Positions 7,648-42,653 of a DNA stretch of 64,000 nt are shown piece after piece (position 1 is the first letter of the stretch; each line of letters opens with the position of its first letter). Source of the DNA: an uncultured Armatimonadia bacterium (lineage in GTDB: Bacteria > Armatimonadota > Zipacnadia > CAZGSV01); the NCBI GenBank assembly GCA_964528605.1, contig CAZGSV010000009.1:156-64155 (forward strand), in the 5' to 3' direction. The notes beneath the pieces were generated by a model, which was given only the letters and a program-made list of their open reading frames with translations, was not told the DNA's origin and ran no database searches. The translations under genes and the position numbers were made by a program.

Positions 7648-8652
7648 CTAGTCCTTCCCCTCAATCCAGGCGGGATGCGCCCTCACGTGCTTGATGTGCG
7701 TCCGCCGGCGGTAAGTGTAGGTCACGTGCACAAACCCGGCCCGGTCCTGAATGATACCCGGGTAGGAGTATCCGCCCTCCTCAGTCTCGATGTTCCGCTT
7801 CGCGTACCAAGTCTCGCAATCGTCCTTCGAGATTCCCAGCGTCAGCGGGGTTCGGTGCTCCTCGCTGTCGTTGAACGCCAGCACCACCCTACCGTCGGCC
7901 AGCTTGACCATGTCAATGGCCGCACCCGGCGAGGGTATCTCTGCATTCACCGCGCGCGACCACGTGCGCCCGTTGTTCTTGGAGTAACTCCTGCCCACCC
8001 TCGGCTCGTCGCCCGCCGGCCGCAGCAGCGCCACGATCACCCCGTCCCTCCGCTGAATCAACGTGGGCTGCTCGTTCTCAACACCCGCAATCGGAAACCC
8101 GTACTCCCACGTCTTTCCGCAGTCGGGCGAGATGAGAAAGCGCGACCTCTCGTCCCTGCACTCGAACCCGAAAATCACCTCGCCGTTGGCCAGCAAGATG
8201 GGCTTGGTGCGGAAAACGTCGCCCCACTCCTTGCGGATGAAGCGCTCCCGAGACCAAGTGCGTCCCTCGTCCTCGGAGACGCGGTACTTCTGATCCACCG
8301 TGTCCCAGCGCACGCCCGGGCCCCAGTGCCCCTCCAGCCGCCCGTGCATCGTCCCGTAGAACAGCCAGAGCCGCTGGTCCGGCATCACGTAGAGCACGCA
8401 GTTCCCTTCCGGCTTGCCCGGGGTATCGGCGACCGCCACCGGCTCCTCCCACTCCTTGGCCCCCGCCGGCTTGCGCGCGGTGAGAATGGCCACGTCCGCC
8501 GCCGCCTCGCCTTCTCCCGCATACCAGCAGCACAGCAGGTCGCCCGATGGCACCTCAACCACGCTCGAGCAGTGACAAGAGGGGAACCGCTCCGTGGGAA
8601 CACACACAAACTCGCTTTCGAACAGCGCCAAGCCACTCGCCTCCATGGACAC
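7648..8652 (-). CDS. BNR/Asp-box repeat protein, exo-alpha-sialidase (GH33)-like
   Basis: Four Asp-box repeats S.D.G.TW: SEDEGRTW, SPDCGKTW, SKNNGRTW, SKDDCETW. About 334 aa, the size of a single six-bladed propeller. Confidence 0.65.
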   Translation of the reverse strand: MSMEASGLALFESEFVCVPTERFPSCHCSSVVEVPSGDLLCCWYAGEGEAAADVAILTARKPAGAKEWEEPVAVADTPGKPEGNCVLYVMPDQRLWLFYGTMHGRLEGHWGPGVRWDTVDQKYRVSEDEGRTWSRERFIRKEWGDVFRTKPILLANGEVIFGFECRDERSRFLISPDCGKTWEYGFPIAGVENEQPTLIQRRDGVIVALLRPAGDEPRVGRSYSKNNGRTWSRAVNAEIPSPGAAIDMVKLADGRVVLAFNDSEEHRTPLTLGISKDDCETWYAKRNIETEEGGYSYPGIIQDRAGFVHVTYTYRRRTHIKHVRAHPAWIEGKD

Positions 8653-8827
8653 CGGCAGTCAGCGCAAACAGGCTATGGCGAGCATACCAGAACCGGCGTA
8701 CACGTCAACGTGCCCTCCCGCCAGGAGTTTGACTTGCCTCGCCCGCCTCGGCTACAAGGGGCCGAGAGGCGGGCACGCTGGGAGACCTGTGCTGGCATGG
8801 CGCGACAAAGAGAGGATGGGTGGCCCC

Positions 8828-11800
8828 ATGTTTCTCCTCCGCAATATCCCATTGGTGGCGCTCCTTTGGGCGTCGCTGGCGGCCGGCGCTGAGGCCGCCA
8901 TGGTGCGCACTGTCTTCGACTTCCAGCGCTCCTTCGACCGAGCCACCGTCAACAACGCGATGCAAGCGACGGCCGAGGGAAACGCCAAGTCCGGAGTCTT
9001 CCAAGGCCGCGCGCTCTTCGAGCACCCGCTCGCCGAGGGCGAAGCCTCCATCACCTATCAGGTTCTCTTGCCGCAGGTGCCAAGCGGAGCAACCCTGGCC
9101 TTTGCCTCTTACGTGGGCCTGCGCTCTGGGGTGCCCTTCAATGACCAGGAGAGGCCCTTCGATGGCGTCGCCTTCTCCCTGCTCGTCAACGCCGAGCGGC
9201 GCTTCCGCGAGGTGGTCCTTGGCGGCGATCCCCACACCGTGTGGGCAGACCTCACGCCCCTCGCCGGGCAGCGCGTCACCATCAGCCTCAACACCGACTG
9301 CAACGGCCAGTCCAACTGGGACTGGGCTCTCTGGCTCCGGCCCCGCATCGTCATGGTCAGCGAAGAAACACGACCCGCCCCCTGCGGAGAAATGGTCCTC
9401 TTCGAGGCCCGAGGCAAGGCCGGCCTCGACCAAGACGATCCGGTCCAGGCCCTGGCCGGCGGGCAGGTGCTCGTGGAATGGTGGATGCCCCATAGCCAAC
9501 TCGCCGACGGCGGCTGGCACCTCGGCATGATCGAATATGCCGCGCCCAAGGATGAGACGCCCGTGGAGATCGTCGCCGGCCCCGGACTCGAGATCCGGTC
9601 AGTCCGCCGCTTGAGCCTGCCGCCTGAGGTCGAGTTCCACGGCATCTCCGCCCGCCGGGGCATCATCTGGCCCGGCGACCAGGTCGTTCTCGCGGCCAAG
9701 GTGCGCAACGTCGGGCCCAGCCCGCTCCTCCCGCAGGACCGCTGCCGCGTCGCCGTGCGCCTCCAGGGACCGGCGTCTCTGGAGGGCCCCGCCGAGGCCT
9801 CCATCGAGAAGATTGACGCCGGCGGCGAAGCGACGGTCACCTGGACCGTTCGCACGCAGCAAGTCGCTGAGCTGCGCGTCCAGGCCGAACTCACCTCTGC
9901 CCTCTCCAGCCCCTCACTCGTCCACGAAACCATCTCCGTGCTCCCCAAGCCGGCCGAGGCGCCACTGGCCGTCGCCGAGGGCCGCCGCATCATCCCCCTT
10001 GGCAACGACCTGCTCCTAGAGTCCCCCACGCTGCGCGTGCAGTTGGTGGGCGATGGGACCGCCTACCACTACGGCCTCGTCTTCGTCGCCCAGGGAAAGA
10101 CCTACAAGCCGCTCGGCGCCCTTTGGCCGTTGAGCCGCGTTGTCTACCAAGGCCGCGACCGCCCGATGACCTGGGTCCTTCGGCCCGACGTGGTCAAGTG
10201 CGGGGCGCAGTCCGTGGACCTCGAGCAGACCTTCACCGACGAGCGCGGAGCCAAGTGGACGGCCTCGCTCCGCTTCCAGTTCGCCGGGCGCGACCCCTTC
10301 CTCGAGCCCACCTGGATCGAGACTCGCTACCAACTCTCGGTTGACCGCGCGCGTAACCTGCTCCACTTCGCCGGCCCCACTCTCTTGGCCGGCGAGCGCT
10401 GCTTCGGCGCCAAGAAGGACTCCGCTCTCTTCCCCGGCCTCGAGGCCCTCGAGGGCGATGAGCCCTCCTCCAGCACCCGCGACTTCGCGCCCCCCCTAAA
10501 CCTTCGCTACGTGCCCAACATCTACAAGATTACCATCCCGCTCCTGGCCGTCTCCGACGGCGAGAGCACCCTGGGCCTGATGTGGGACATGAACCGGCAT
10601 TGGTCTCCCGGCAACGCCGGCCTCGCTGCCCGCTTCGCCTCGCCCAACTTCAAGGACGCGCAGGAGAACCATCTCATGGGAGTCTTCGTGCCTACGCCTC
10701 CCGAGTCGCTCAGAGAGAACGAGGAACTCGCCTCACATCCCTACGTGCTCGAGCCCGACAAGCCCGTCACCATCTCCGCGCAGATCCTCGCGGCCCCCGG
10801 CAATGCCTTTGCCTCCGTCTGGCAATGGGACTGGCGCCATCACCTCCCCAACCCTCTGCCTTGGCCTCGTCAGGTCGAGCAGGAACTGGCCCTGTGCCGC
10901 AAGGGCTTCATGGAAACCGTTTGGGACCCTGAGACCAAGAAGAACCGCCACTGCATAGGCTGGGGCCCAGCCAACGCCCCCGGCTTCGGCACACTGCTCT
11001 GGTGGGACTCCCTCGTGACCCGCAACCAGGCCGCTCGCGAGCGGGCCGTACTCATCGGCGAGCAAACGCTCCGCGAGGCGGGCCCGGGCGGACTTTGGTC
11101 CACCGCCAACTGCCACATCATGCGCTGGGAGTTCCCCTTCTACTTCGGCCGCCTCGACGAGGCCTTCCCCGCCCTCCGCGACCAGGCCAAGGGGCTCCTG
11201 GCCTCGCAGGAGGCGGACGGCAGTTGGCGCTTCCATCCCGGAGAGGGCCGCGAGTCGCTCGGCAAAGCCGGCGACGCCGTCCTCGGCACCTGTGCCGGGC
11301 CCGCCTACAACCTCTGGCGCTACGCTCGCCTCACCGGCGACCCGCAAGCCATCGCTGCCGGCGAGAAGGCCCTCCGCTTCATGCGCCGCTTCCGCGTGCC
11401 CAGAGGCGCGCAGGGCTGGGAGTGCCCCCTCTACGAGCCCGACATCCTCGCCGCCGCCTACGCCATCCTGGCCTATACCGAGGCCTACAGGGCAACCGGC
11501 AATCAGGAGTGGCTGAGGGACGCGGAGTACTGGGCCGAGAGCGGCCTCCCCTTCATCTACGCCTGGCGCCTCCCCGATAAGCCCGGCATGCTCCACGCCA
11601 CCATCCCCGTCATCGGCTCAACCTTCTACACCCACTCCTGGCTCGGCCTGCCGGTCCAGTGGTGCGGCCTGGTCTATGCCTACGGCCTCAACCACCTCGC
11701 CGACTGCCCCTCATCGCGCTCCGAGGTCTGGCGCAAGATCGCCCACGGGGTCACCGTGAGCGGCGCCTATCAGCAGTTCGACTTCGACGACGAACGCGCG

Positions 11801-12232
11801 GGCACCTACCCCGACTCCTACAACCTCTGGACCGGCGCGCGCAACGCCGCCTACATCAACCCCGAGGACATAGCCGTCAATCTCCTCGCCCTGCGTGGTC
11901 ACGACCCCGACATCTCCACGCTTCTCGCCACGGGCCTGCCCGGAGGCGCGGCGCATGTCTCCTCGGGCGCGCGCGTCCGCTCCGCGGAGATCACGGATGG
12001 CCGCCTCGTCGCGCGCCTCCAGTTCTTCCCCGGCGAGACGACCTACTCCTTGCTCGCCAACGTGGCCGAGCCGCAAGAGGTCAAGTGGGAGGGCCGCACG
12101 CTGCCTAGACTGAACGCGCTCGCCGACGCCGAGGAAGGCTGGGCCTACAGGGACAGCTTGCTCTTCGTCCGCGAGCGCCACCAGACCCAGGAGGGCGACC
12201 TCGAGATCACGCTGCCCGCGCCACCCTCCTAG
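8828..12232 (+). CDS. Large secreted protein (about 1135 aa) with (alpha/alpha)-toroid-like Q..DG.W repeats; function unknown
   Basis: ATG 8828 after AGAGGA; signal peptide MFLLRNIPLVALLWASLAAGAEA. Repeats QLADGGWHLG and QEADGSWRF resemble terpenoid-cyclase / prenyltransferase-type toroid repeats. It is divergent from the sialidase-like gene. Confidence 0.5.
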   Translation: MFLLRNIPLVALLWASLAAGAEAAMVRTVFDFQRSFDRATVNNAMQATAEGNAKSGVFQGRALFEHPLAEGEASITYQVLLPQVPSGATLAFASYVGLRSGVPFNDQERPFDGVAFSLLVNAERRFREVVLGGDPHTVWADLTPLAGQRVTISLNTDCNGQSNWDWALWLRPRIVMVSEETRPAPCGEMVLFEARGKAGLDQDDPVQALAGGQVLVEWWMPHSQLADGGWHLGMIEYAAPKDETPVEIVAGPGLEIRSVRRLSLPPEVEFHGISARRGIIWPGDQVVLAAKVRNVGPSPLLPQDRCRVAVRLQGPASLEGPAEASIEKIDAGGEATVTWTVRTQQVAELRVQAELTSALSSPSLVHETISVLPKPAEAPLAVAEGRRIIPLGNDLLLESPTLRVQLVGDGTAYHYGLVFVAQGKTYKPLGALWPLSRVVYQGRDRPMTWVLRPDVVKCGAQSVDLEQTFTDERGAKWTASLRFQFAGRDPFLEPTWIETRYQLSVDRARNLLHFAGPTLLAGERCFGAKKDSALFPGLEALEGDEPSSSTRDFAPPLNLRYVPNIYKITIPLLAVSDGESTLGLMWDMNRHWSPGNAGLAARFASPNFKDAQENHLMGVFVPTPPESLRENEELASHPYVLEPDKPVTISAQILAAPGNAFASVWQWDWRHHLPNPLPWPRQVEQELALCRKGFMETVWDPETKKNRHCIGWGPANAPGFGTLLWWDSLVTRNQAARERAVLIGEQTLREAGPGGLWSTANCHIMRWEFPFYFGRLDEAFPALRDQAKGLLASQEADGSWRFHPGEGRESLGKAGDAVLGTCAGPAYNLWRYARLTGDPQAIAAGEKALRFMRRFRVPRGAQGWECPLYEPDILAAAYAILAYTEAYRATGNQEWLRDAEYWAESGLPFIYAWRLPDKPGMLHATIPVIGSTFYTHSWLGLPVQWCGLVYAYGLNHLADCPSSRSEVWRKIAHGVTVSGAYQQFDFDDERAGTYPDSYNLWTGARNAAYINPEDIAVNLLALRGHDPDISTLLATGLPGGAAHVSSGARVRSAEITDGRLVARLQFFPGETTYSLLANVAEPQEVKWEGRTLPRLNALADAEEGWAYRDSLLFVRERHQTQEGDLEITLPAPPS

Positions 12233-12286: not shown

Positions 12287-13594
12287 CTACGCCCAAAGCG
12301 CGCTCAGCAACTCGGAGGCGGCCTCCAGTATCATCCCCCCCGAGGCGGGCGCTATCATCAGGCGGCCATAGTAATGGTGCGCCCCCTCCACCTCGTAACC
12401 GCCCTCGGGATACGCGCTCTCCGTGGGAACGTAACCGATCACCCCGTTGCTGTAAGCCGCCACCGCCGTGTGCCGCGCCGGCGAACCCGCCTCGATCTCT
12501 AAGGCGTACTCGACGAACACCTCTCCCGAAAGCCCTACCAGCGCCCCGTCGCCAATCCTGAGCACCTGCACCTCGAAGGGCCCCGGCCCTGCGGGCGCCC
12601 TCCCCTCGGCGATCTCCACCATGTGCCCCTCCCAGTCCACATGTGCCTGACGCATCCCGAGCGTTCTCTCGTCCGCCCCCTGTGCCTTCGCTTCCTCGTA
12701 CCCCTGCTGGTATCTGGCCAGCGTCGCGCGAGCCTCCTCCGGCGAGGGAACGATCACCGGCAACTCCAAGCCTTTCGACCGCGCCGCCAAGCGCGTTTCC
12801 GCTCCGGTCTCCGTGCTCTCCGCCGCCTTCAGGACCTCCGTGCCCAGAATGGTTCCCAAGCGCCGGGCATCCTCAAAGGCCCCCCCCACCACCTGAGAGT
12901 TGATGTTGCCGCAGCAGCCCTGGGCGAATAGAGCCCGCGTCGGAACCTGCGCGCCGCCCTCAACCGTCAGCCGCGCGTAGCCGGGATAGTCGGCCGAGAA
13001 GTAAAGGTTGTCCCCGCCCAACACCACCGCGTGTGCCGCGTGCACGCCCAGCACAAACCGCACCTCCTCCCTGTCCACGCGCAGCACGTCCACAAACGGA
13101 GCCACCGGTCCCGCCGGGTTCTGCCCCAGCACCATCGCCGACTTGGCCCATTCCCGCCGGTTGATGCCTATCTGCACCTCCCCGCGCCCCCAACCCAGAC
13201 GCGCCGGCGCCAGATTCTCCGCTGCCATCTGCACTGCATCCGCGCACTTCCGCAGGAGAACGTCCAGATACGCCGGGTCCGGCTCGCCCATCCCTCGCAG
13301 GTGCATCGAGGCCGGGCCTGAGTGAGTGTGCGAGCAGGAAATCATCAGCGCCTCGGCCGGGATCGCAACGCGCCTAGCCACGTCGTCGCGCACCTGGGCC
13401 ACGCTCTCGAAGTCCAGCCCCAGAAGGTCGCAGCAGACAATCGCCAGGCGCTGACTCTCATGCTCCAGCACCAACGCGCGCGCCTGCAACGGGTCGTGCA
13501 CCCCGATGGCGCCCGAGCGCCTGCCACCGAACCCGGTCAGTTCCACGCCCAGAGGGGGCGTGATGTCGGTGACGGCAAAGCCGGCCTGTAGCAT
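12287..13594 (-). CDS. Neutral/alkaline ceramidase N-terminal-domain-like hydrolase
   Basis: MLQAGFAVTDITPPLGVELTGFG...GVHDPLQARALVL matches the conserved N-terminus of the neutral-ceramidase family. ATG 13594 has GGAGG 7 nt upstream; the ORF-track start at 13606 is a TTG. Confidence 0.6.
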   Translation of the reverse strand: MLQAGFAVTDITPPLGVELTGFGGRRSGAIGVHDPLQARALVLEHESQRLAIVCCDLLGLDFESVAQVRDDVARRVAIPAEALMISCSHTHSGPASMHLRGMGEPDPAYLDVLLRKCADAVQMAAENLAPARLGWGRGEVQIGINRREWAKSAMVLGQNPAGPVAPFVDVLRVDREEVRFVLGVHAAHAVVLGGDNLYFSADYPGYARLTVEGGAQVPTRALFAQGCCGNINSQVVGGAFEDARRLGTILGTEVLKAAESTETGAETRLAARSKGLELPVIVPSPEEARATLARYQQGYEEAKAQGADERTLGMRQAHVDWEGHMVEIAEGRAPAGPGPFEVQVLRIGDGALVGLSGEVFVEYALEIEAGSPARHTAVAAYSNGVIGYVPTESAYPEGGYEVEGAHHYYGRLMIAPASGGMILEAASELLSALWA

Positions 13595-13636
13595 AGGTTC
13601 CTCCAACGCTCTCGCGGTCTGTCGCGCCGCCGGCGC

Positions 13637-15964
13637 CTAGTGAATGTGAACGGTCGCCTGGTCCGAGCGCAGTCTTGACAGTCTCTGCAAAGTCGCGGCC
13701 GCCTCTTCCCGCACGCGCACATTCCGGTCCCGTAGCGCGCCCATGATCCGTTGCACTGCCCAGCGATGGCCCAGCGCCGCCAGCGCGCGCAGGGCCATCC
13801 AGCGCACCCTCGGGCACGGGTCCTTCAGCGCCACCGTGAGCGGCTCCACGGTCCGTTTCTCTCCCAGCATCCCCAGGGCGCGCGCCGCCTCCACCCTCAC
13901 ACTGGCGTCCTTGTCTTTCAAAGCGACCACCAGCGGGTCCACCGCTTCCCTCCACCGCATCCTACCGAGCACTATCGCGCCCGCGCGCCGTATCCGGTGG
14001 TCGCGCGACTCCGTCATGTTGTGTATGGCCGCGTCCGCCACCGGCTGCCCGCCGATGGAGACCAGCAACTCGATCGCGCGGTGGCAAAACACGTCGCTCT
14101 GGGTCGCCCGCACCAGGTAGTCAACGTTGGCCTCGTTCCAGCTGCACTCGTGCAGGTTTCTGGCGACATACAGCCTGATGCCGCCGAACGGGTCCGTCAG
14201 GCCGCGGTCCACCATGGGCTCCGCCACGTAAGTGCCGCCCGCTCGCCGCAGGAAGCGCACCGCCGCCCACCTCAAGGCCCGGTCCTCCTCGTCCAGCAAG
14301 CGGGCAATGAACTCGATGGCGCGCGCCGCGCCCCCCCGGCCGAGCGCCACCAGCGACTGCTCCTGCGCCGCCGTAAGACCCTCTTGCAGAGCCTGACGCA
14401 GAACGCCCAGCGCCTGCGTCTCCAAACGCACGTCGCTCACCTGCCCGCCCACTATGCACGCCACCACCAGCACCGGGTCCTCAGTCGAAGCCAGCACTCG
14501 CGTCATCCACGCCAGGCGCTCGCGCGGCGGCAGTATGCCGGTCAGCAAGATCAGCGCCTCCCACCACCAGGCGCTGTCCTTCACCAGTTGCGCCACCTCC
14601 ACCTCCGCGTGCCCCTCCGCCAGATACTCCGCCGCGTGGAACTGCTGGAACTCCCACCTGGCAAAACGGAGATGCCCCTGCTGGCCAACCACGCCGCAAC
14701 CCGCGTGGGCCAACACCTTGCAGGCCACCCCCGCCCGCACCAGGCGCCGCGCCTGCTCTTCGCCCCCGGGGCCGCGTGCCGACAGTTCCGCTAGAACCCG
14801 CTCGCGCGCCTCCGCTGTCAGGTGCGCGCGATTCATCTTGAAGGCCCATGCGCTCAGCGCCTGCCGCGCCCAAGCCTCGCGCACCACGGAGAGGTCCTCT
14901 TCCGTGCCCGCCTCACCCGTGAGGCATTGCAGGTAGGCCGCCATCACTCGACCGCGGTTGTCGGACACCTCCGCCGTCTCTCCTTCGCGCTCGCGCAGGC
15001 AAGCGAGACGCCAGAGGCTCATGGGGTTGGCCGCCACATCCAGCAGGCCGCGCGCGGTGATGCGCTCCCATAGCCCCCGTGCCGCCTCGGCCTCCAGATA
15101 GGCGTCCAGCAGCGACCGCACCTGCTCGCTCTCCAGAACCGCGAGTTCCACCACATTCACTTGATCCGCGCCCAACGCATCCACAAACGCGGGCAGCACG
15201 TTCCGCTGGCACGCGATCACCATCCTGACCTCGGGAAAGTGCCGCGCCAGACGGACCAGCGCCTGCGTCACCGCCCCGTGCGGCTCAGCCTCGTCCAGGT
15301 TGTCCAACAGCAGCGCCAGCGTCCCCTGCTGCATGTAAGCGCGCGCCCGCGCCCCCAGACGCCGGCTGGCAGCCGCCAGGCACTCCTCGATGTGCGCCAT
15401 CGGGCTCGCCTCGCGTCCCTGCTCCCGCGCCTGCACCACCCCCATATCCATGAGTACCGGCAGCCGGAAGGCCGCGCCCGTAAGTTCCTGCCTGGCTGAC
15501 CGGGCCAGTTTCCCCGCCAGCCAACGAAGCGCTCGGCTCTTCCCACTCCCGCTGTCCCCCGTGAGCAGCAGGGGCCGCCGCGCCCGCTCGAAAGCGTCCG
15601 TGAGGGTTATGGGCTTCTCGTCCCAGAGAAGGTTGGGCTCTGCCTCCGCGATCGGAGCGAAGAACTGCGCGCTCGGCTCCCCTTCTCCCAGGACCCGGAG
15701 CGCGCGCAGCAAGAGTCGCAGGTAGCGCCGCTCCGCCAGGCCCTGCCACACGCCCAGCGTCAGCACATCCCAAAAGGTGAAGCCCGCGTGCGGCACAAAG
15801 ATCACCGCCAGGCCCATCGAGAGCATCAGCAGCGCAATCGGCACTAGCCGCCCGATTACCTCATGCCCGTAGAAGGGCGGCACCACCAGGTTGACCACCA
15901 CCCAGACTACCGCCGCATACCACAGCCCCACCCCTAACGCGGCTGACAACCAGCGGCTCATCAT
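13637..15964 (-). CDS. Membrane-anchored STAND NTPase: N-terminal TM helices, NACHT domain, C-terminal HEAT (PBS-lyase-type) repeats
   Basis: Walker A LTGDSGSGKS, NACHT-type Walker B LALLLDNLDEA, two or three N-terminal TM helices, and repeated VR..A...L HEAT units at the C-terminus. Likely start is ATG 15964 (MMSRW...). Confidence 0.7.
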   Translation of the reverse strand: MMSRWLSAALGVGLWYAAVVWVVVNLVVPPFYGHEVIGRLVPIALLMLSMGLAVIFVPHAGFTFWDVLTLGVWQGLAERRYLRLLLRALRVLGEGEPSAQFFAPIAEAEPNLLWDEKPITLTDAFERARRPLLLTGDSGSGKSRALRWLAGKLARSARQELTGAAFRLPVLMDMGVVQAREQGREASPMAHIEECLAAASRRLGARARAYMQQGTLALLLDNLDEAEPHGAVTQALVRLARHFPEVRMVIACQRNVLPAFVDALGADQVNVVELAVLESEQVRSLLDAYLEAEAARGLWERITARGLLDVAANPMSLWRLACLREREGETAEVSDNRGRVMAAYLQCLTGEAGTEEDLSVVREAWARQALSAWAFKMNRAHLTAEARERVLAELSARGPGGEEQARRLVRAGVACKVLAHAGCGVVGQQGHLRFARWEFQQFHAAEYLAEGHAEVEVAQLVKDSAWWWEALILLTGILPPRERLAWMTRVLASTEDPVLVVACIVGGQVSDVRLETQALGVLRQALQEGLTAAQEQSLVALGRGGAARAIEFIARLLDEEDRALRWAAVRFLRRAGGTYVAEPMVDRGLTDPFGGIRLYVARNLHECSWNEANVDYLVRATQSDVFCHRAIELLVSIGGQPVADAAIHNMTESRDHRIRRAGAIVLGRMRWREAVDPLVVALKDKDASVRVEAARALGMLGEKRTVEPLTVALKDPCPRVRWMALRALAALGHRWAVQRIMGALRDRNVRVREEAAATLQRLSRLRSDQATVHIH

Positions 15965-16077
15965 GCCGCGTAACCCCTCCCCGGGCAACGCCGACCGACC
16001 GCACGCCCGAGGCTAGTAGCACAACCAATAAGTCCAGGAAGCATGATGGGCCTCCGGCGCTTCACTGCAGAGGGCGC

Positions 16078-16488
16078 CTAGAATTGGACCGCCAGTCTCG
16101 TCTTCTCACCTACCCCTATCTCTTCTCCGCTCTCCAACTTTACCTCGGTCAGCGCGGCGATCTCCTCGCCCCGCAACCGCGTCCCGTTCGTGCTCCCCAA
16201 GTCCACTAGATAGTAGCCGTCAGCCCGGCGCCGCAACTCGGCGTGAAAGCGAGAAACTGCATCGTCGCCCGACAGGTCAATGTCCGGGCTGGAACCGCGC
16301 TCCGGGTCCGGTCGCCCAATGGTGATGACGTCCTGCTCAAAGGTGCTCTCGCCCGAAAGGAAACCCATGGAGACCTTGATGGTGATGGCGCCGGCGCCCG
16401 TTGGCCTGACGCGCGTACCGCAGTTGGGACACTCGCTCGCCCCCGCCTCGAGCGGAGCCCCGCACTTGGCGCAAGTGTTGCCAGCCAT
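16078..16488 (-). CDS. FHA-domain protein with an N-terminal zinc ribbon
   Basis: CAKCGAP...CPNCG zinc ribbon followed by an FHA core (ITIGR....DIDL..D..VSRFHAEL.....YYLVDLGSTNGT.L). ATG at 16488. Confidence 0.7.
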   Translation of the reverse strand: MAGNTCAKCGAPLEAGASECPNCGTRVRPTGAGAITIKVSMGFLSGESTFEQDVITIGRPDPERGSSPDIDLSGDDAVSRFHAELRRRADGYYLVDLGSTNGTRLRGEEIAALTEVKLESGEEIGVGEKTRLAVQF

Positions 16489-16638
16489 ACGCCTTCGACC
16501 TCCCCGAGCGCAAACGCTCACCGGCCGCCGACGTCACCATGCCGTATGACGCCGCCGGCCACCTGCGCATCCCATACCTCCAGCACCTAGCCAGGCTGGC
16601 GCTTCACTCCTGCCGCTCACAGGCTACCACAAAACCGG

Positions 16639-23069: not shown

Positions 23070-23357
23070 CGCGTCCCTCGCCTGCAATATGCCCCCCCTG
23101 CCCGATCGGCAGAGAGCATCAGTGGCGCAAGCCTAGCACCTCGCGCCCGAGCCGGCAAAACAGCGGGCCCAACACAACTTGGCCGCACCTCACCGCACCA
23201 ACGTTGACTCTCTCGCGGCAAACCGTTAGCCTGCGCCTGACTGGCCGAATCCCATCCTGCCTCGACAGCGCTAACCGCGGCAGTGACTCTGACTTTTTCC
23301 GCGCCCAGCCAAGGCCCGGGCGCTTCACGAGGTGCCGAACCGCGAGATGAACGACCG

Positions 23358-24560
23358 ATGAGAGTGGAGGTGCTCGCCGTGCTCATAGCATTGCTCTCCC
23401 TCACAGCCGTCCCAGCACAGGCGCGAGGCAAGATCCTCGTCTACAACCCGCTCGAGGGCGCCGAGGGCGACCCCATCCGCCATAGCCTCCTCTCCCAGTT
23501 CCGGGACCAGAACCCCGATCTGCAAGTCGAGGAACGCGAAGCGCCGTCCGCATACCTGCAAGAGGCCCAAAGCCTCGCCCAGCAGCCAGGCCAGGCCGTC
23601 TTCACCATCATCTATGCCATCAAGTTCCCTCGCCTGGCCGACCAGGGCGTGTTGGCCCCCATTGACCGCCTGGCCCCGGCAGAACTGTGGCAGGATCACT
23701 ACCCCAAGGTGCTTCAGACGGTCACCTACAAGGATCGCATCTGGGCCCTGCCCCTCGAGGCCAACCCCTATGGCCTCTTCTGCAACCTCGAGCACTTCCG
23801 CGAGGCCGGCGTGGGCCTGCCCACAACCTGGGAGGAAACGCTGGCCGCGGCCCGAGCGCTCACGCGCGACACCGACGGCGATGGCAAGATTGACCGCTGG
23901 GGCTACACCCAGTGCACCTTCCAGTTCCCCCTCGAACTGTGGTCCTACGGCATTGACGTCATCCGCCCCGACGGCGCCGTCGGCTTTGCCGACCCACCCG
24001 CGGCCGAGATCCTCCACTGGTACTGGGAACTCCGCCACTACTCCCCGCCCCACGTGGACTTCGAGCGCGGCGACGTCGCCATGAAGGTCAGCGTTACCGA
24101 CAACCTCAGCCGCTATCGCCATATGGACTACAAAGTCATCCCACTGCCCCGAGGCACCCGCCGCGTCAACTCGCTCGGCGGCTCGAACTCCACCCTGGGG
24201 CTGGTGCTCATCAATGGCAGCGACCCCGAGGTCGCCAAGCGTTTCCTCGCCTTCTGGGCCTGGCCGCCCGCCTACCTCCGCTGGTGCACCTGGACTCACA
24301 ACCTGCCGCTGCGCAAGTCCATTCGCCAAGGCGCCGCTTACCAGAGATACCTGCTGCGCAATCCGGCCATGCAGGTCTTTAACGACGACTTCGATTACGC
24401 CCTGCCCCGGCCCGTCCGGCCCGAATACGATCCCATCCACGACATCGTCGCGCGCCTCACCAACTGGGCCGCCGGCCAGCCGACGCAGCCCTCCGTCCAA
24501 CAGTGCCAGGCCAGACTCGACCAAGCGAAGATAGAGGCGGAAGCGCTGCTGCCCAAGTAG
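23358..24560 (+). CDS. Extracellular solute-binding protein, family 1 (sugar-ABC SBP), paralog 1
   Basis: Signal peptide MRVEVLAVLIALLSLTAVPAQA. ALPLEANPYGLFCNLEHFREAGV.LPTTWEETLAAARALTRDTDGDGK is a MalE-type SBP_bac_1 hallmark. Confidence 0.7.
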   Translation: MRVEVLAVLIALLSLTAVPAQARGKILVYNPLEGAEGDPIRHSLLSQFRDQNPDLQVEEREAPSAYLQEAQSLAQQPGQAVFTIIYAIKFPRLADQGVLAPIDRLAPAELWQDHYPKVLQTVTYKDRIWALPLEANPYGLFCNLEHFREAGVGLPTTWEETLAAARALTRDTDGDGKIDRWGYTQCTFQFPLELWSYGIDVIRPDGAVGFADPPAAEILHWYWELRHYSPPHVDFERGDVAMKVSVTDNLSRYRHMDYKVIPLPRGTRRVNSLGGSNSTLGLVLINGSDPEVAKRFLAFWAWPPAYLRWCTWTHNLPLRKSIRQGAAYQRYLLRNPAMQVFNDDFDYALPRPVRPEYDPIHDIVARLTNWAAGQPTQPSVQQCQARLDQAKIEAEALLPK

Positions 24561-24642: not shown

Positions 24643-25818
24643 ATGATATTCGCTCTGCTGTGCTCCTCCGCAGTTCAGGCGGCAACCCGAGGCAAGATCG
24701 TCTTCTACAACCCCATCGCCGGCGCGGAAGGCGAGCCCTTCAACCGCACCCTCATACCTCACTTCGCCGATGAGAACCGCGACCTAGAGGCCGAAGAGCG
24801 CCCGCTCACGGACTCCAACTGGGACCAGGCTCTCGAATGCGCCCGCCAGCCCGGCCACGCCGCCTTCACCCTCACCACCGCCATCAAACTCCCCTCCTTC
24901 GCCGACCAGGCCGCGATTGTGCCCATGGACCACCTCGCTCCCGCCGCTCTCTGGCAGGACTACTATCCCAAAGTAATGCAGACCGTAACCTACAAAGGCC
25001 GCATATGGGAGATGCCGCTGGAGGCCAACCCGTACGCGCTCTTCTGCAACCTGGAACACTTCAACGCCGCCGGCGTGCGCATCCCCACCACTTGGGAGGA
25101 AACCCTCGAGGCCGCGCGCGCCTTGACGCGAGACACTAACGGCGACGGCAAGCCGGACCTCTACGGCTACACTCAGTGCACCTATCAGTTCCCCCTGGAA
25201 CTCTGGTCCTACGGTGTGGACTTGGTCACCCTGGACGGCGCAGTCCGCTTCGCTGATCCGCCCGCGGCGGAGATCCTCTGCTGGTACGCGAAACTGCGCT
25301 CCTACTCGCCCCCCCACGTCTCCTTCGAGCGCGATGATGTCGCCATGAAACTCAGCACGGTGGATGACATGCCCCACTACCGGCACCTCGACTTCACCGT
25401 CGTTCCCTTGCCGAGCGGTACCCGGCACATCAACTCCCTCGGCGGCTCCAACTCGGCCATGGGCATGGTGCTCCTCGCCGGCAGCGACCGGGAACTCGCC
25501 TCGCGCTTCCTCACCTTCTGGTCCCGCGAAGACGTCTACCTCCGCTCCTGCGTGCCTGTCCTGCTCGTGGCCCTGCGCAAGTCGGTACGCGAGAGCGCCC
25601 CCTACCAACGCTACCTGCGCCGCAATCCGGAGGTCCAACTCTTCGACGCCGAACTCGACTATGCCCTGCCTCGCCCCTGCATGCCCCAGTACGAGCCCAT
25701 CCACGAGATCGTCGCTCGCTTCACCGGCTGGGCCAGCAGCACCCGCCCGACCGTCGAGCAGTGCCAGGCCAAACTCGAGGAAGCCAAGAAGGAAGCGCAG
25801 GCCCTCTTCCACAAGTAG
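24643..25818 (+). CDS. Extracellular solute-binding protein, family 1, paralog 2
   Basis: About 60% identical to paralog 1 throughout (EMPLEANPYALFCNLEHFNAAGVRIPTTWEETLEAARALTRDTNGDGKPD). ATG has a GGAG SD. Confidence 0.7.
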   Translation: MIFALLCSSAVQAATRGKIVFYNPIAGAEGEPFNRTLIPHFADENRDLEAEERPLTDSNWDQALECARQPGHAAFTLTTAIKLPSFADQAAIVPMDHLAPAALWQDYYPKVMQTVTYKGRIWEMPLEANPYALFCNLEHFNAAGVRIPTTWEETLEAARALTRDTNGDGKPDLYGYTQCTYQFPLELWSYGVDLVTLDGAVRFADPPAAEILCWYAKLRSYSPPHVSFERDDVAMKLSTVDDMPHYRHLDFTVVPLPSGTRHINSLGGSNSAMGMVLLAGSDRELASRFLTFWSREDVYLRSCVPVLLVALRKSVRESAPYQRYLRRNPEVQLFDAELDYALPRPCMPQYEPIHEIVARFTGWASSTRPTVEQCQAKLEEAKKEAQALFHK

Positions 25819-25880: not shown

Positions 25881-25969
25881 GCCCAGGTGGTGGAATTGGT
25901 AGACACGCAAGGTTGAGGGCCTTGTGAACGCATTAGTTCATGGGGGTTCGAGTCCCCCCCTGGGCACCA
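25881..25969 (+). tRNA. tRNA-Leu(GAG)
   Basis: Acceptor GCCCAGG/CCTGGGC, anticodon stem CAAGG/CCTTG with loop TTGAGGG, long variable arm, T-arm GGGGG-TTCGAGT-CCCCC, encoded CCA. Confidence 0.85.
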
Positions 25970-26022
25970 GCGGTAGCAGCCCGCGCTCAACCTCCGCGAG
26001 AGACGGATGTTGAAAGCGCACG

Positions 26023-26100
26023 GTGGGCGGTTGGCTCAGCGGCGACGCGCCCCGCCAACCGCGGGGAGGTCGCAGGTTCACCGCACTTTGAGATGTCATG
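26023..26100 (+). pseudogene. Degenerate tRNA-Val-like pseudo-tRNA
   Basis: The 5' part is identical to tRNA-Val (GGTGGGCGGTTGGCTCAGCGGC). The anticodon arm is altered (CCCCG-CCAACCG-CGGGG), the T-loop has a 5-nt deletion (GCAGGTTCA-CCGCAC), and there is no acceptor 3' strand. It is followed by a 14-nt spacer TTTGAGATGTCATG. Confidence 0.4.
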
Positions 26101-26102
26101 GT

Positions 26103-26177
26103 GGGCGGTTGGCTCAGCGGCAGAGCGCTTGCTTCACACGCAAGAGGTCGCAGGTTCAAATCCCGCACCGCCCACCA
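26103..26177 (+). tRNA. tRNA-Val(CAC)
   Basis: Acceptor GGGCGGT/ACCGCCC, D-arm GCTC-AGCGGCA-GAGC, anticodon stem CTTGC/GCAAG with loop TTCACAC, T-arm GCAGG-TTCAAAT-CCCGC (one A-C mismatch), encoded CCA. Confidence 0.8.
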
Positions 26178-26218
26178 CCTGCCATTACCTTTCCCCCCAC
26201 CCAGCCTCCCACCGCGCG

Positions 26219-26280
26219 GAGGCCGCAGGTTCGCCGCACCTTGAGATGTCATGGTGGGCGGTTGGCTCAGCGGCGACGCG
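26219..26280 (+). pseudogene. Pseudo-tRNA-Val fragments: a 3'-part-like segment, the 14-nt spacer, then a 5' half
   Basis: AGGCCGCAGGTTCGCCGCAC-CTTGAGATGTCATG-GTGGGCGGTTGGCTCAGCGGCGACGCG repeats the junction seen upstream of tRNA-Val. Confidence 0.35.
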
Positions 26281-26401
26281 GCCTCAAGCGCCCGCGCCCC
26301 GTCTACCGTATGCCGTCTACCGTCTGTTCCTCCCTCCCTGGCTACTGTCTACTGTCTGCTGGCTACTTCCCCCTCCCCTCTGCCCACTGCCCTCATCCCC
26401 C

Positions 26402-26430
26402 TTGCGCCCACCCGTGCGCCGGGCTAGAAT
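26402..26430 (+). promoter_or_regulatory. Candidate sigma70 promoter for tRNA-Gly
   Basis: TTGCGC, 17-nt spacer, TAGAAT (26425-30), 10 nt upstream of the tRNA start. Confidence 0.45.
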
Positions 26431-26440
26431 TGCCCACCGA

Positions 26441-26515
26441 GCGGAATTAGCTCAACGGTAGAGCAGCGGCTTCCCAAGCCGAAGGTTGCGGGTTCGAATC
26501 CCGTATTCCGCTCCA
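26441..26515 (+). tRNA. tRNA-Gly(CCC)
   Basis: GCGGAAT-TA-GCTC-AACGGTA-GAGC-A-GCGGC-TTCCCAA-GCCGA-AGGTT-GCGGG-TTCGAAT-CCCGT-ATTCCGC-T-CCA. Confidence 0.85.
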
Positions 26516-27325: not shown

Positions 27326-28594
27326 ATGCTGAACCAACTGGCCGTCCTTCTGACTCTCGGCGCCGGTCCCTCGGGCCGGGTCTTCCTCTACAGCCCTCTC
27401 GACTCGGTCGAGGGCTACTCAATGGAGGAGAGCTTCCTCTCACACTTCCGCTCCGAGAACCGGGGTATCGAGGTCGTGGAACGTCGCCTGTTGGGCGCGG
27501 AGATGGCCGAGGCCCAAGTGCAGGAAATGTACGGCGCGAGGTTCGTCTCCGCCTCCTCCGCAAGAAACCTGCCTCGCGCGCGCCAGTCCGAGGCGCACGA
27601 GTTGGCCGCGCAGCCGGGACACGCGGTTTTCACTATCACTTGGGGCAACAAGATACCCGCCTTGGTTGACGGAGGCCTAATCGCCCCGGTTGATGGCCTG
27701 CTCCCCAAGCAGTATTGGGCCGACTTCTACCCGCGAGTCCTCGACACGGTCACCTACCAGGGGCGCATCTGGTCACTGCCCCTGGAGGCCACACCCTACG
27801 CCCTCTTCTGCAATCTGGAGCACTTCTGCGCTGGTGGCGTTTCCCTCCCGACCACTTGGGAAGAGACCCTGGCGGCCGCGCAGGCACTCACCCGCGATAC
27901 CGACGGCGACGGCACGCCCAACCTCTGGGGTTACACTCAGTGCACCTACCAGTTCCCACTCTTGCTGTGGTGCTACGGCATCTCCATCATCCGCGAGGAC
28001 GGACTGGCCGGATTCGCTGACCCGCCCGCCGTTGAAGTGTCGCGCTTGTACTGGGCCTTGAGAGAATGCTCGCCCCCCCACGTGGAGTTCGAGCGCGGCG
28101 ACGTTGCCATGAAACTCAGCACCTACGACGACATCAACCGCTATCATCATCTGGACTATGCCGTCATCCCTCTGCCGCACGGCACCTGCCGGGCCAACAG
28201 CCTCGGGGCCTCGGGCTCCACGATGGGTATGGTGCTCTTGAACGGCAGCGACCCCGAGATCGCCGGCCGCTTCCTCGCCTTCTGGGCCCGCCCGGACATC
28301 TACCTCAGATGGTGTGTGTGGACGCACGCTGTCGCCCTGCGCAAGTCCGTGCGCGACAGCGCCGCCTATCAGCGCTTCCTCCTGCGCGTACCTGAGATGC
28401 GAGCCTTCGACGGGGATCTGGAGTGCTCAGTGCCCCGGCCCGTGATCCCCGAATACGACGCCATACACGAGGTAATTGCCGGCTACACTAGATGGGTCAA
28501 CGTACAGCCCGTCGAGCCCTCCCTCCAGGAGTTGCAGGCCAGGCTCGATGAAGCCGCGGCCCAGGCCAACGCCCTTCTCACGGCAAGTCGCTAG
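27326..28594 (+). CDS. Extracellular solute-binding protein, family 1, paralog 3
   Basis: GGAGGG SD. SLPLEATPYALFCNLEHFCAGGVSLPTTWEETLAAAQALTRDTDGDGTPNLWGY is collinear with paralogs 1 and 2. Confidence 0.7.
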   Translation: MLNQLAVLLTLGAGPSGRVFLYSPLDSVEGYSMEESFLSHFRSENRGIEVVERRLLGAEMAEAQVQEMYGARFVSASSARNLPRARQSEAHELAAQPGHAVFTITWGNKIPALVDGGLIAPVDGLLPKQYWADFYPRVLDTVTYQGRIWSLPLEATPYALFCNLEHFCAGGVSLPTTWEETLAAAQALTRDTDGDGTPNLWGYTQCTYQFPLLLWCYGISIIREDGLAGFADPPAVEVSRLYWALRECSPPHVEFERGDVAMKLSTYDDINRYHHLDYAVIPLPHGTCRANSLGASGSTMGMVLLNGSDPEIAGRFLAFWARPDIYLRWCVWTHAVALRKSVRDSAAYQRFLLRVPEMRAFDGDLECSVPRPVIPEYDAIHEVIAGYTRWVNVQPVEPSLQELQARLDEAAAQANALLTASR

Positions 28595-40313: not shown

Positions 40314-42653
40314 CTAGTCTTCGAAGGCGCCCACTACCAGGGTAGCGTTCTTCCCCCCGAAGCCGAAGGAGTTGCAGAGAGCGTTGCGTACGCTCATCTC
40401 CCGACCCACGTTGGGCACGTAGTCCAGGTCGCACTCGGGGTCCGGGTGCTCGTAGTTGATCGTGGGGTGGACAAAGCGGTCGCGGATGGATAGCAGGCAG
40501 GCCGCCAGTTCGATGGGGCCCGAGGCGCCGATGCTGTGGCCGATCAGCCCCTTGGTCGAGTTCACCGGCACGCGGTAGGCGTGCTCCCCCAACACGCTCT
40601 TGATGATCATCGTCTCCGTCTTGTCGTTAAGCGGCGTGCTGCTGCCATGCGCGTTGACGTACTCCACTTCCTGCGCCGTCAGCCGAGCGTCGGCCAACGC
40701 CTCAGTCATCGCCCGCCCCGCCTCCGCGCCGTCCGGCGCCGGCCGCACCATGTGGAAAGCGTCGCCCGTAGCCGAGTAACCCAGCACCTCGCCCAAAATG
40801 GTCGCCCCCCGGGTTATGGCGTGGCCCAACTCCTCCAGCACCAACACGGCCGCGCCCTCGGACATCACAAACCCGTCCCGGTCGCGGTCGAAGGGCCGAC
40901 ACGCCTGCGCGGGCGCGTCATTGCGCGTGGAAAGAGCGCGGATGGCGTTGAAGGAGGCCACGATGATCGGCCGCAGGGGAGCCTCCGCACCCCCCGCCAG
41001 CGCCGCGTCTATCTCCCCGCTCTGAATGGCGCGGAAGCCCCAGCCGATCGCGTCCGCGCCCGCCGCGCAGCCAGTGGAGATGGTCACCGTCGGCCCCTTG
41101 CTGCCCAATTGCATCGAGACTTCGCTCGACACCGCGCCGCTGAAGACCACGATCGCCAGGAAGGGACTCACCTTCTCCGAACCTTCCCCCAGAAAGATCT
41201 TGTGCTGCTCCTCGGCGAACTCAATGCCGCCCACGCCGGTGCCGATGTAGACCCCCACGCGCTCCGCGTCTTCCTGGCTCATATCCAGGCCCGCGCCGTC
41301 AACCGCCAAGCGCGAGGCCGCCACCGCCAGGTGCGTCGAGCGCCCCGCCCGCTTCACCGTCTTGGCGTCGAGAAAGTCGTGCGGGTCGAAGCCGGGCACC
41401 TCGCCGCCAAAACGCGTCGGCAGGCCAGTGGCGTCGAAGAGCGTGAAAGGACGGATCCCCGACTCGCCCCGCTTCGCCGCCTCCCAAAACACCTCGGTCC
41501 CGATGCCCAACGGAGTCACCATGCCAATGCCGGTCACCACCACGCGGCGCTTGGGCGCTGCTTCCGCCCGTGGCCGCAGCACGTACAGCGCCACCTTTTC
41601 CGTCCCCTCGCGCGCCAAGTCTTCGTAGGCGCTTTGCGCCCGCCGCAGCAACTCGTCAACCTCGGCCTGCCGCGCAGGCATCACCGCCACCCCCGCCTGC
41701 GCCCGCAGCCGATCCGCCACCCGAGTCACCGAAAGCGTCTCGGCCACGCGGCCCACGATCCTCTCCGCCGCCCGCATGCCCTCCCGGTATTCTACTCCCG
41801 GCAAGATGAGAAACAGCCTGTTCTCCTCGAGGCGCCCGACGCTCTCCCCGGTCCGCGCGCCCGCGTGCACCAGGCGCACCACTTCCTGCACCAGCACCTC
41901 AGCCGCGGTCGCGCCGCGTTCGCCCCGGAGCGCCTCCCATCCGGGCAGCCCCACGCACACCACGCACACCACGCCGTCGCGACGTCGCGCGCGCAGGATC
42001 TCCTCTTGCAGACGCACCTCCAGCGCTTCCTTGGTCAACACCCCGGGCGCCCCCTCTTCCACCGCCCAGCCCGCGCGCTCCTCCAGCAGTGAGGCCAAGG
42101 CCACGCTCCGAGTCTCCAAGCCCCGATAGCGCTCCACAATCCCAACCAGGTCGCTCGCCACCGAGCGTATCGCGCGACCCGCGACCAGCAGTTCCTCTTC
42201 CTTAAGGACCGGCAGGTGAGCCACCTCGGCCAGCACTTCCTCCGCCGAGAGCCCCAATTCCATCGTGACCTTGCGTAGCGCGGTCGTGTCCGTATCCGCC
42301 GACCCGATTCCCCCCCCGACCACCGCGGCCACGGGCACACCCGCGGCCACCAAGGGCACCGCGCACACCAGCAGCCCCCCATGGCACCGCCATAGCCCCA
42401 CTCCTTCCGCGGCTACCGTCTCGCTGAAGCACTCCCTGGCGTAGCACTCCCGACAGCGGCTGATACCCAGCACCGTGCTGCGGATGAGCCGGCAGAATCC
42501 ACTCAGTTGCGTCTCCCCCGCCAGCAAGTCACCGTCCGGCCCCACCAGCAGCGGCACCACCCCCAACAGGTCGCGGCCAACCCGTTGCAGGCGCTCCCAC
42601 TCACCCACCACCCCCATCAAGCCGGCCACATTGCGCCTGCTTGGGCCGCTCAT
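40314..42653 (-). CDS. Tri-domain fusion: PocR-like sensor, degenerate GGDEF-like domain, full-length beta-ketoacyl-ACP synthase II (FabF-type KAS)
   Basis: PocR motifs FCRLIRSTVLGISRCRECYARECFSE and CHGGLLVCAVPL. The GGDEF-like region has LEENR in place of GGEEF. The KAS domain starts at KRRVVVTGIGMVTPLG and carries the Cys in TISTGCAAGADAIG, His in NAHGSSTPLNDK and His in GHSIGASG, ending CNSFGFGGKNATLV. It is a single uninterrupted 779-aa ORF. Confidence 0.7.
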   Translation of the reverse strand: MSGPSRRNVAGLMGVVGEWERLQRVGRDLLGVVPLLVGPDGDLLAGETQLSGFCRLIRSTVLGISRCRECYARECFSETVAAEGVGLWRCHGGLLVCAVPLVAAGVPVAAVVGGGIGSADTDTTALRKVTMELGLSAEEVLAEVAHLPVLKEEELLVAGRAIRSVASDLVGIVERYRGLETRSVALASLLEERAGWAVEEGAPGVLTKEALEVRLQEEILRARRRDGVVCVVCVGLPGWEALRGERGATAAEVLVQEVVRLVHAGARTGESVGRLEENRLFLILPGVEYREGMRAAERIVGRVAETLSVTRVADRLRAQAGVAVMPARQAEVDELLRRAQSAYEDLAREGTEKVALYVLRPRAEAAPKRRVVVTGIGMVTPLGIGTEVFWEAAKRGESGIRPFTLFDATGLPTRFGGEVPGFDPHDFLDAKTVKRAGRSTHLAVAASRLAVDGAGLDMSQEDAERVGVYIGTGVGGIEFAEEQHKIFLGEGSEKVSPFLAIVVFSGAVSSEVSMQLGSKGPTVTISTGCAAGADAIGWGFRAIQSGEIDAALAGGAEAPLRPIIVASFNAIRALSTRNDAPAQACRPFDRDRDGFVMSEGAAVLVLEELGHAITRGATILGEVLGYSATGDAFHMVRPAPDGAEAGRAMTEALADARLTAQEVEYVNAHGSSTPLNDKTETMIIKSVLGEHAYRVPVNSTKGLIGHSIGASGPIELAACLLSIRDRFVHPTINYEHPDPECDLDYVPNVGREMSVRNALCNSFGFGGKNATLVVGAFED

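Follow-up and report, generated by a model that had tools for sequence, protein, structure and literature searches.

Bacterial NACHT proteins carry repeat sensors, including HEAT repeats, have transmembrane regions in many clades and include architectures with FHA and zinc-ribbon domains (Kibby et al., 10.1101/2022.07.19.500537). FHA domains have also been mentioned in conflict systems related to the signal transduction ATPases with numerous domains (STAND) (Kaur et al., PMC7159879). In this study, a 64-kb stretch of contig CAZGSV010000009.1 from an uncultured Armatimonadia bacterium (assembly GCA_964528605.1), hereafter called the window, was analyzed for a trio of genes encoding a zinc-ribbon FHA protein, a NACHT-HEAT STAND ATPase with membrane helices (the NACHT protein) and a hydrolase with the fold of neutral ceramidases. 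The cluster is vertically inherited, specific to its lineage and located in the core chromosome, and it is not a mobile defense island. Tentatively, and at less than even confidence, we read it as a membrane-tethered NACHT switch that is probably co-transcribed with, and possibly regulates, a cytoplasmic ceramidase-fold amidase; the FHA protein would serve as a phospho-dependent adaptor, and the role of the cluster would be housekeeping or envelope-related. Antiphage defense of the AVAST type, proposed in an initial annotation of this DNA, is not supported.

The bNACHT proteins described by Kibby et al. resemble the cluster in their central NACHT domain, C-terminal HEAT-type sensor and transmembrane segments, and the FHA and zinc-ribbon domains listed for them reside here on a neighboring protein. 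The cluster differs from them in having no fused enzymatic or adaptor effector, a sensor that is more conserved than the NTPase, and a core-chromosome context. The NACHT protein has no close relative among the tested families, and the next NACHT proteins share at most 30% identity with it. Since transmembrane, HEAT and FHA elements are already cataloged in bacterial NACHT proteins, with transmembrane domains found across many NACHT clades, the membrane anchor is not unusual for a bacterial NACHT protein, contrary to the initial annotation, which called such helices unusual for STAND NTPases. The protein is of an already known architecture type, and the finding is real and largely ordinary. AVAST (Avs) systems resemble the cluster in combining a STAND NTPase with a repeat sensor and in the notion that an effector may be fused or encoded separately. 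However, Avs proteins are mostly outside the NACHT clade, no Avs model of PADLOC matches the cluster, and the cluster has neither a nuclease, protease, SIR2 or TIR effector nor a defense-island context.

The NACHT-HEAT protein

The NACHT protein contains a NACHT domain at residues 138-300 (PF05729, 34.7 bits versus a cut-off of 26.7) and HEAT repeats (HEAT_2, 6e-22). Its Walker A (GDSGSGKS) and Walker B (LLLDNLDE) motifs are intact, are both kept in the relative P0002, and have the form that defines the NACHT clade (GxxGxGK[ST] and hhhhD[GAS]hDE). Two hydrophobic helices were detected at residues ~5-28 and 38-58, with Kyte-Doolittle maxima of 2.17 and 2.44. The AlphaFold2 (AF2) model (pLDDT 78) shows helices at 2-27 and 34-55, a long helix at 64-94 ahead of the NACHT core, and a helical-repeat solenoid at the C-terminus. 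Hydropathy and modeling agree on the N-terminal membrane helices noticed in the initial annotation, and the same hairpin was found in the relatives P0002 and P0131. An arginine-rich stretch past the second helix (ERRYLRLLLRALR) would, by the positive-inside rule, put the NACHT-HEAT part in the cytoplasm.

In Foldseek, the model matched NOD2 (5irm, E 5.5e-10), NLRC4 (4kxf) and the NACHT domain of NLRP3 (7alv, TM-score 0.71 by target), all in ADP-bound forms. The predicted protein thus has the NBD-HD1-WHD-HD2 fold of the NACHT clade followed by a solenoid, as in these animal NLRs, and its best hits represent the autoinhibited state. It differs from the NLRs in having HEAT instead of leucine-rich repeats and a membrane hairpin instead of a CARD or PYD domain, and the identity is 12-16%. 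The solenoid matched alphaRep HEAT-like repeats. No enzymatic domain N-terminal of the NACHT domain was found by Pfam or in the model. Only the two-helix hairpin, a linker and one long helix precede the NTPase, indicating that there is no cryptic N-terminal enzymatic effector.

Gene starts, spacing and co-transcription

Three co-directional minus-strand genes were confirmed within 12287-16521 (Table 1). Their orientation and spacing were described correctly in the initial annotation, and Pfam identified every domain named there. The FHA gene starts at ATG 16488, about 10 nt past GGGGAGG, and GGAGG precedes the start of the hydrolase gene, ATG 13594. The open reading frame (ORF) of the NACHT gene extends to TTG 15988, the start used previously, but the likely start is ATG 15964, behind GGGGAGGGG; ATG 15964 is also the start of the 775-aa product recorded in metagenomes. 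The gap between the FHA and NACHT genes is 113 nt with the ATG start and 89 nt with the TTG start. GC at the third codon position (GC3) is 0.76-0.85 across the trio, indicating that all three are genuine genes, and dN/dS values of 0.12-0.30 against the 99% relative indicate purifying selection. A pseudogene or an artefact was ruled out by the intact ORFs, the codon-position GC and dN/dS values below 0.45.

Short same-strand gaps are typical of genes within one operon. The gap between the NACHT and hydrolase genes is 42 nt in the window and 29 nt in each of two relatives at 68-82% identity (L001 and L015). Because this gap stays short in three lineages, the two genes are likely co-transcribed. 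No terminator-like site was found in a scan of the minus strand of this spacer, and a scan of the FHA-NACHT spacer for consensus promoters and terminators was negative; these scans were uninformative, returning 0 promoters and terminators at chance level. Compared with L001, the FHA-NACHT spacer is unconserved except for the Shine-Dalgarno sequence and the start. Upstream of the FHA gene, just past the stop of the gene for a 254-aa membrane protein, a block at 16610-16638 (minus strand), TTGTG(G/C)TAGCCTG..GGC.GGAG, is kept in L001, a 63-72% relative, and the rest of that spacer has diverged. This block may be a promoter or regulatory element.

Distribution and evolutionary rates

The NACHT family is nearly an orphan, with three or four lineages. 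A word-indexed search found only the 99% cluster (P0001) and one protein at 68% identity (P0002). A full HMMER search with residues 1-520 against 1.84 billion representatives added two fragments, P0130 (57%) and the N-terminal P0131 (43%), which are located on tiny or unrecorded contigs. These four are the only real relatives among the representatives, and beyond them the HMMER search gave generic NACHT proteins at no more than 30% identity. No further relatives were found in GTDB genomes or among IMG/VR viral sequences, and JGI metagenomes returned only the known contig. Distant relatives at ~21% identity (P0136 and P0139; L097, 4282-7590) have NACHT and HEAT domains followed by a C-terminal TatC-like membrane domain in ~1100 aa, an architecture that to our knowledge has not been described; P0136 adjoins a ParE-like toxin-antitoxin pair.

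The order of the 254-aa membrane protein, FHA, NACHT and hydrolase genes, followed by a convergent gene for a 1134-aa protein (BIG1134), was the same in six metagenome samples (L002-L007, 98-99% identity). The same order was found in L001 (GCA_964567035.1) at 63-72% identity, and part of it on the 2.7-kb contig L015 (HEAT 82%, hydrolase 74%, BIG1134 65%). The trio was present on every contig of the lineage that reached that far. The initial annotation had named two findings that together would argue against its proposal, namely the lack of a defense-island context and the loss of synteny in related genomes. The first was observed; the second was not, as the trio is syntenic in L001, L015 and L002-L007.

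The segments of the cluster evolved at different rates. Against the 68% relative, identity was 58% for the transmembrane hairpin, 60% for the linker, 66.5% for the NTPase and 50% for the winged-helix/helical region, compared with 83% for the HEAT region. The FHA protein and the hydrolase were each 72% identical, and BIG1134 was 66% identical. No other segment of the cluster was as conserved as the HEAT region (83% versus L001 and 82% versus L015). Against the 99% relative, the NACHT protein was 99.4% identical, the most conserved of seven neighboring genes, and every dN/dS value was below 0.45; saturated dS and small counts limit what can be concluded from the rates. Slower evolution of the sensor than of the NTPase, in a gene fixed at one site, fits recognition of a conserved partner in the cell and not an arms race. 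The HEAT solenoid may therefore bind a cellular protein that is itself conserved, and not a phage protein that evolves fast.

The ceramidase-fold hydrolase

The hydrolase matched the N-terminal domain of Ceramidase_alk (PF04734) with 65.5 bits versus a cut-off of 32.1. Its AF2 model (pLDDT 87.6) matched the neutral ceramidase of Pseudomonas aeruginosa (PaCD, 2ZWS; E 7e-26, TM-score 0.76 by query), and Foldseek also returned 2ZXC and human neutral ceramidase (ASAH2, 4WGK). Residues S88-H89-T90-H91-S92, R146/R147, H188, E358, Y400-E401 and Y409 were invariant among 23 diverse homologs. From their spacing, compared with the published PaCD and human structures, we take these residues to correspond to the zinc ligands and catalytic residues of PaCD, and for this reason the hydrolase is probably enzymatically active.

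The hydrolase is not equivalent to a full-length ceramidase. The reference for that class is PF04734 together with PF17048, and NF041649; only the N-terminal Pfam domain (PF04734) matched, the TM-score by target was 0.54 against the 630-aa PaCD, and the NCBIfam ceramidase equivalog gave 46.7 bits versus a cut-off of 1200. PaCD and ASAH2 have the catalytic-domain fold in common with the hydrolase, but the identity is only 14-19%, and their C-terminal Ig-like domain (~150-200 aa) and signal peptide are absent in the 435-aa hydrolase. Neither a signal peptide nor a transmembrane segment was found in the hydrolase.

The hydrolase belongs to a large, uncharacterized family of ~440-aa proteins with more than 1300 homologs in Armatimonadota, Poribacteria, Latescibacterota, Gemmatimonadota and Planctomycetota. 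Titles and abstracts of the literature on bacterial neutral ceramidases yielded nothing concerning this short family. Of 346 matches in GTDB species representatives, 80 loci were retrieved for a survey; they came from Armatimonadota, Ca. Zipacnadia, Poribacteria, Latescibacterota, Gemmatimonadota, Planctomycetota and others. The usual neighbors of the hydrolase gene encode GFO/IDH/MocA oxidoreductases, epimerases, AP_endonuc_2, ThuA, FGE-sulfatase and solute-binding proteins. The usual setting of the family is metabolic, and its genomic context points to sugar-linked metabolism.

Hydrolase and HEAT-repeat genes in other loci

A gene for a ~500-aa protein made entirely of HEAT repeats directly follows the hydrolase gene in 12 of the 71 loci with enough downstream sequence. 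These loci belong to Armatimonadia, Ca. Zipacnadia, WS1 and unclassified metagenome-assembled genomes (MAGs). In Latescibacterota and Gemmatimonadota, a ~493-aa HEAT protein is encoded four genes downstream of the hydrolase (14 of 51 loci), in the order epimerase, hydrolase, a 330-aa protein of unknown function, DUF5107-like protein, FGE-sulfatase, HEAT lipoprotein, Vgb-lyase/SGL propeller and solute-binding protein. The composition of this directon assigns the hydrolase family to a pathway that is catabolic or linked to the periplasm. The association of the hydrolase with HEAT proteins is unlikely to be due to chance, because only 3 other HEAT matches occurred among the 3023 ORFs of the surveyed loci. 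In a neighbor-joining tree, the window hydrolase is located near, yet outside, the clade with adjacent HEAT genes, one reason why homology does not extend the association to the window. The shared directons lend weak support to a link between the hydrolase and HEAT proteins and weakly hint that the family works with HEAT-repeat proteins.

The directly paired loci are L023, L025, L030, L032, L034, L038, L040, L058, L071, L076, L077 and L079, with the hydrolase gene at 8001-9300 and the HEAT gene at ~9300-11000. The paired ~500-aa HEAT lipoproteins have a lipobox cysteine and a linker rich in His, Asp and Glu, e.g., HDHDHDHD. One of these loci, L025 (JALGUG010000001.1, a Ca. Zipacnadia MAG), showed no nucleotide similarity to the window. 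The directon of Latescibacterota and Gemmatimonadota is tight (L059-L070, L075, L082 and L086; 6800-17300).

FHA protein and proposed switch

The FHA protein matched the FHA domain in Pfam (1.7e-15; PF00498, 57.6 bits versus a cut-off of 20.7) and Zn_Ribbon_1 (5.7e-7). The phospho-threonine-binding residues of FHA domains, Gly-Arg, Ser-x-x-His and Asn-Gly, are present in the translation as IGR, SRFH and TNGT. No transmembrane segment was found in the protein. The ortholog in L001 has the same position and is 72% identical.

In the mechanism that we tentatively propose, the two-helix hairpin would anchor the cytoplasmic NACHT ATPase in the inner membrane as a STAND switch. The HEAT solenoid would bind a conserved cellular partner, and ligand binding would release an autoinhibition like that of NLRC4. 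The ATP-bound NACHT protein may then oligomerize at the membrane, and the oligomer would position the amidase expressed along with it on an N-acylated compound of the membrane or envelope, or regulate its action there. Coupling of the switch to Ser/Thr phosphorylation might be provided by the small FHA protein. A regulatory link between the NACHT protein and the hydrolase is possible.

Several results weigh against this mechanism. No NACHT-like NTPase or FHA gene was detected within 8 kb of the hydrolase gene in any of 79 loci from other phyla with a full-length hydrolase (tblastn, NACHT-core hidden Markov model [HMM] and phmmer), and two more loci, examined singly, likewise had neither; as the 79 loci do without NACHT or FHA genes, the hydrolase is not dependent on a NACHT partner. 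The conserved NACHT-ceramidase neighborhood that the initial annotation had suggested looking for thus does not extend beyond a narrow lineage. Synteny says nothing specific about the trio, because all other neighbors are collinear too: the comparisons were all made within a collinear block, and relatives with rearranged flanks were sought and none was found. The HEAT proteins that accompany the hydrolase in other loci bear lipoprotein signal peptides and are extracytoplasmic. With the profile of these lipoprotein HEAT regions (H1), the window HEAT domain scored 85 bits, versus 174-188 bits for unrelated HEAT proteins, which is no more than generic repeat similarity. The profile score and the signal peptides rule out the window HEAT domain as an ortholog of the HEAT lipoproteins. 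The window yielded no kinase or phosphatase that could supply the FHA protein with its input.

In an alternative that we consider somewhat unlikely, the three genes are merely neighbors: the hydrolase would be a stand-alone metabolic amidase, the NACHT-HEAT protein an unrelated, lineage-specific STAND ATPase, and the FHA protein part of another phospho-signaling pathway. The large hydrolase family without NACHT or FHA genes elsewhere, its usual metabolic neighbors, the long and unconserved FHA-NACHT spacer and the whole-block synteny, which accounts for the persistence of the trio, all fit this explanation. The hydrolase might then perhaps work with the convergent secreted BIG1134 and BNR/sialidase-like genes. 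The BIG1134 and hydrolase genes converge in all relatives, and a BIG1134 homolog is located near a hydrolase in another locus (L073). However, three lineages retain a same-strand gap of 29-42 nt between the NACHT gene and the hydrolase gene, a spacing typical of an operon, and in other loci members of the hydrolase family repeatedly share operons with HEAT proteins. Both observations argue against mere neighborhood.

Relation to antiphage defense

With PADLOC, no defense system was matched by the trio, the only matches being HEAT-ARM_XIII and HEAT_CxxC on the repeats and P-loop noise. Ten further neighbors gave only the expected cross-matches of ABC ATPases. The NCBIfam antiphage families likewise did not assign the trio to bNACHT or Avs systems; the NACHT protein matched EruA only partially (30.7 bits, 8.9e-8, versus a cut-off of 1000), and a literature search on EruA found nothing. 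The adjacent ceramidase-fold enzyme is not among the defense effectors recognized by PADLOC, and at its N-terminus the NACHT protein bears the two-helix hairpin, which might itself be an effector, and the long helix. No paper linking STAND NTPases with ceramidases was found in the literature search.

Abortive infection of the bNACHT/Avs kind is an unlikely explanation for the cluster. In such a system, the HEAT region would sense either a protein of the phage or a host protein that has been perturbed, the NACHT protein would oligomerize, the clustered transmembrane hairpins and/or the hydrolase would damage the membrane, and the FHA protein would act as a brake. The bNACHT proteins with antiphage activity in experiments likewise combine a NACHT domain with a repeat sensor, and transmembrane, HEAT and FHA elements are in the catalogs. 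The weak partial EruA match, the near-orphan status of the family, as for many defense genes, and the toxin-antitoxin pair next to the distant relative P0136 also point in this direction. Against this, the trio and 13 further neighboring proteins match no PADLOC system, no enzymatic effector is recognizable in fusion with the NACHT domain, and in other loci the hydrolase family consists of enzymes of the housekeeping type. No integrase, transposase, phage family or defense gene was matched in the window, which is a core housekeeping context. Instead of a mobile neighborhood with variable presence, identical placement was found on contigs from six samples and in two diverged lineages, with no presence/absence variation seen. 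No relatives of the NACHT protein were found on viral contigs in IMG/VR. The slowest-evolving segment is the sensor, and among strains the NACHT protein is 99.4% identical, above its neighbors.

Taken together, these results leave the AVAST-type assignment without support. The more general proposal of a defense or signaling module survives in its signaling part, because the domains, co-orientation and spacing were right and the few related lineages, the only ones found, have the trio in synteny; its defense part is unsupported.

Features and genomic context

Table 1. Positions of the trio, its spacers and the segments of the NACHT protein in the window
Feature	Position	Strand	Description or basis
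Zinc-ribbon and FHA protein, 136 aa	16078..16488	minus	Predicted cytoplasmic phospho-threonine reader
FHA-NACHT spacer, 113 nt	15965..16077	minus	
NACHT-HEAT STAND ATPase, 775 aa	13637..15964	minus	Two-helix transmembrane hairpin, NACHT NTPase, winged-helix/helical region, HEAT solenoid
N-terminal transmembrane hairpin of NACHT protein, residues ~1-55	15802..15964	minus	Kyte-Doolittle, AF2
HEAT-repeat solenoid of NACHT protein, residues ~481-775	13637..14524	minus	HEAT_2, helical repeats of the model
NACHT-hydrolase spacer, 42 nt	13595..13636	minus	With Shine-Dalgarno GGAGG
Neutral-ceramidase-fold zinc hydrolase, 435 aa	12287..13594	minus	Catalytic domain only; PF04734, AF2/Foldseek

The assignable genes of the window have core-genome functions. 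They encode nicotinate phosphoribosyltransferase-like, ABC-2 exporter, PmbA/TldD and BNR/sialidase-like proteins, ribosomal protein L28, a DUF1385-CBS protein, glycosyltransferases, three sugar-type solute-binding proteins, an FGE-sulfatase/BNR protein, a histidine kinase, FtsY, FtsW/RodA, NadA, a glycolate-oxidase-like pair and thioredoxin-reductase-like enzymes, together with six tRNAs. The best named relatives of FtsY are all from Armatimonadota (55-58% identity), indicating that the host is a poorly sampled lineage in or near that phylum.

The gene for BIG1134 is located at 8594-12232 (plus strand), with a likely start near 8831, and the protein has a signal-peptide-like N-terminus (MFLLRNIPLVALLWASLAAGAEA). 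No Pfam, NCBIfam or PADLOC match was found for it. It is convergent with the hydrolase gene in every relative (65-71% identity), and a 31% homolog is located 2 kb from a hydrolase gene in a Planctomycetota MAG (L073, 346-2811). A protein of 790 aa encoded at 57718-60090 (plus strand) has a weak C-terminal HEAT_2 match, and its gene overlaps by 4 nt with that of an HD_5 protein at 60087-61562 (plus strand). This protein was ruled out as a paralog of the NACHT-HEAT protein, with a BLASTP E value of 0.008 over one repeat.

An unusual 779-aa fusion of a PocR sensory domain, GGDEF and the N- and C-terminal domains of a beta-ketoacyl synthase is encoded at 40314-42653 (minus strand), adjoining a GAF histidine kinase and a Reg_prop protein. 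Three paralogous SBP_bac_1 proteins with near-identical internal segments are encoded at 23283-24560, 24643-25818 and 27326-28594 (plus strand), interrupted by a tRNA-Leu/Val/Gly cluster at 25881-26515.

Biological significance

The most far-reaching interpretation of the cluster is that the NACHT switch controls a separate ceramidase-fold amidase as its output and has a phospho-threonine reader as its input. The trio would then represent an undescribed module of a STAND NTPase and a lipid/amide hydrolase, acting in envelope homeostasis or abortive infection; we regard this as quite improbable. If such a module existed, a wider, unrecognized partnership between the hydrolase and HEAT proteins across several phyla would accompany it.

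The main value of the analysis is negative. The trio fails tests of defense by context, models and evolutionary rate, indicating that a STAND NTPase with repeats beside a hydrolase is insufficient for a defense call. The pairing of the hydrolase with HEAT lipoproteins is a modest, checkable lead for annotating the hydrolase family. Should the ceramidase-fold enzyme indeed be regulated by the NACHT-HEAT protein, the known bacterial NLR-like switches would gain an output directed at lipids or amides, and the regulation would provide the first functional handle on this large hydrolase family.

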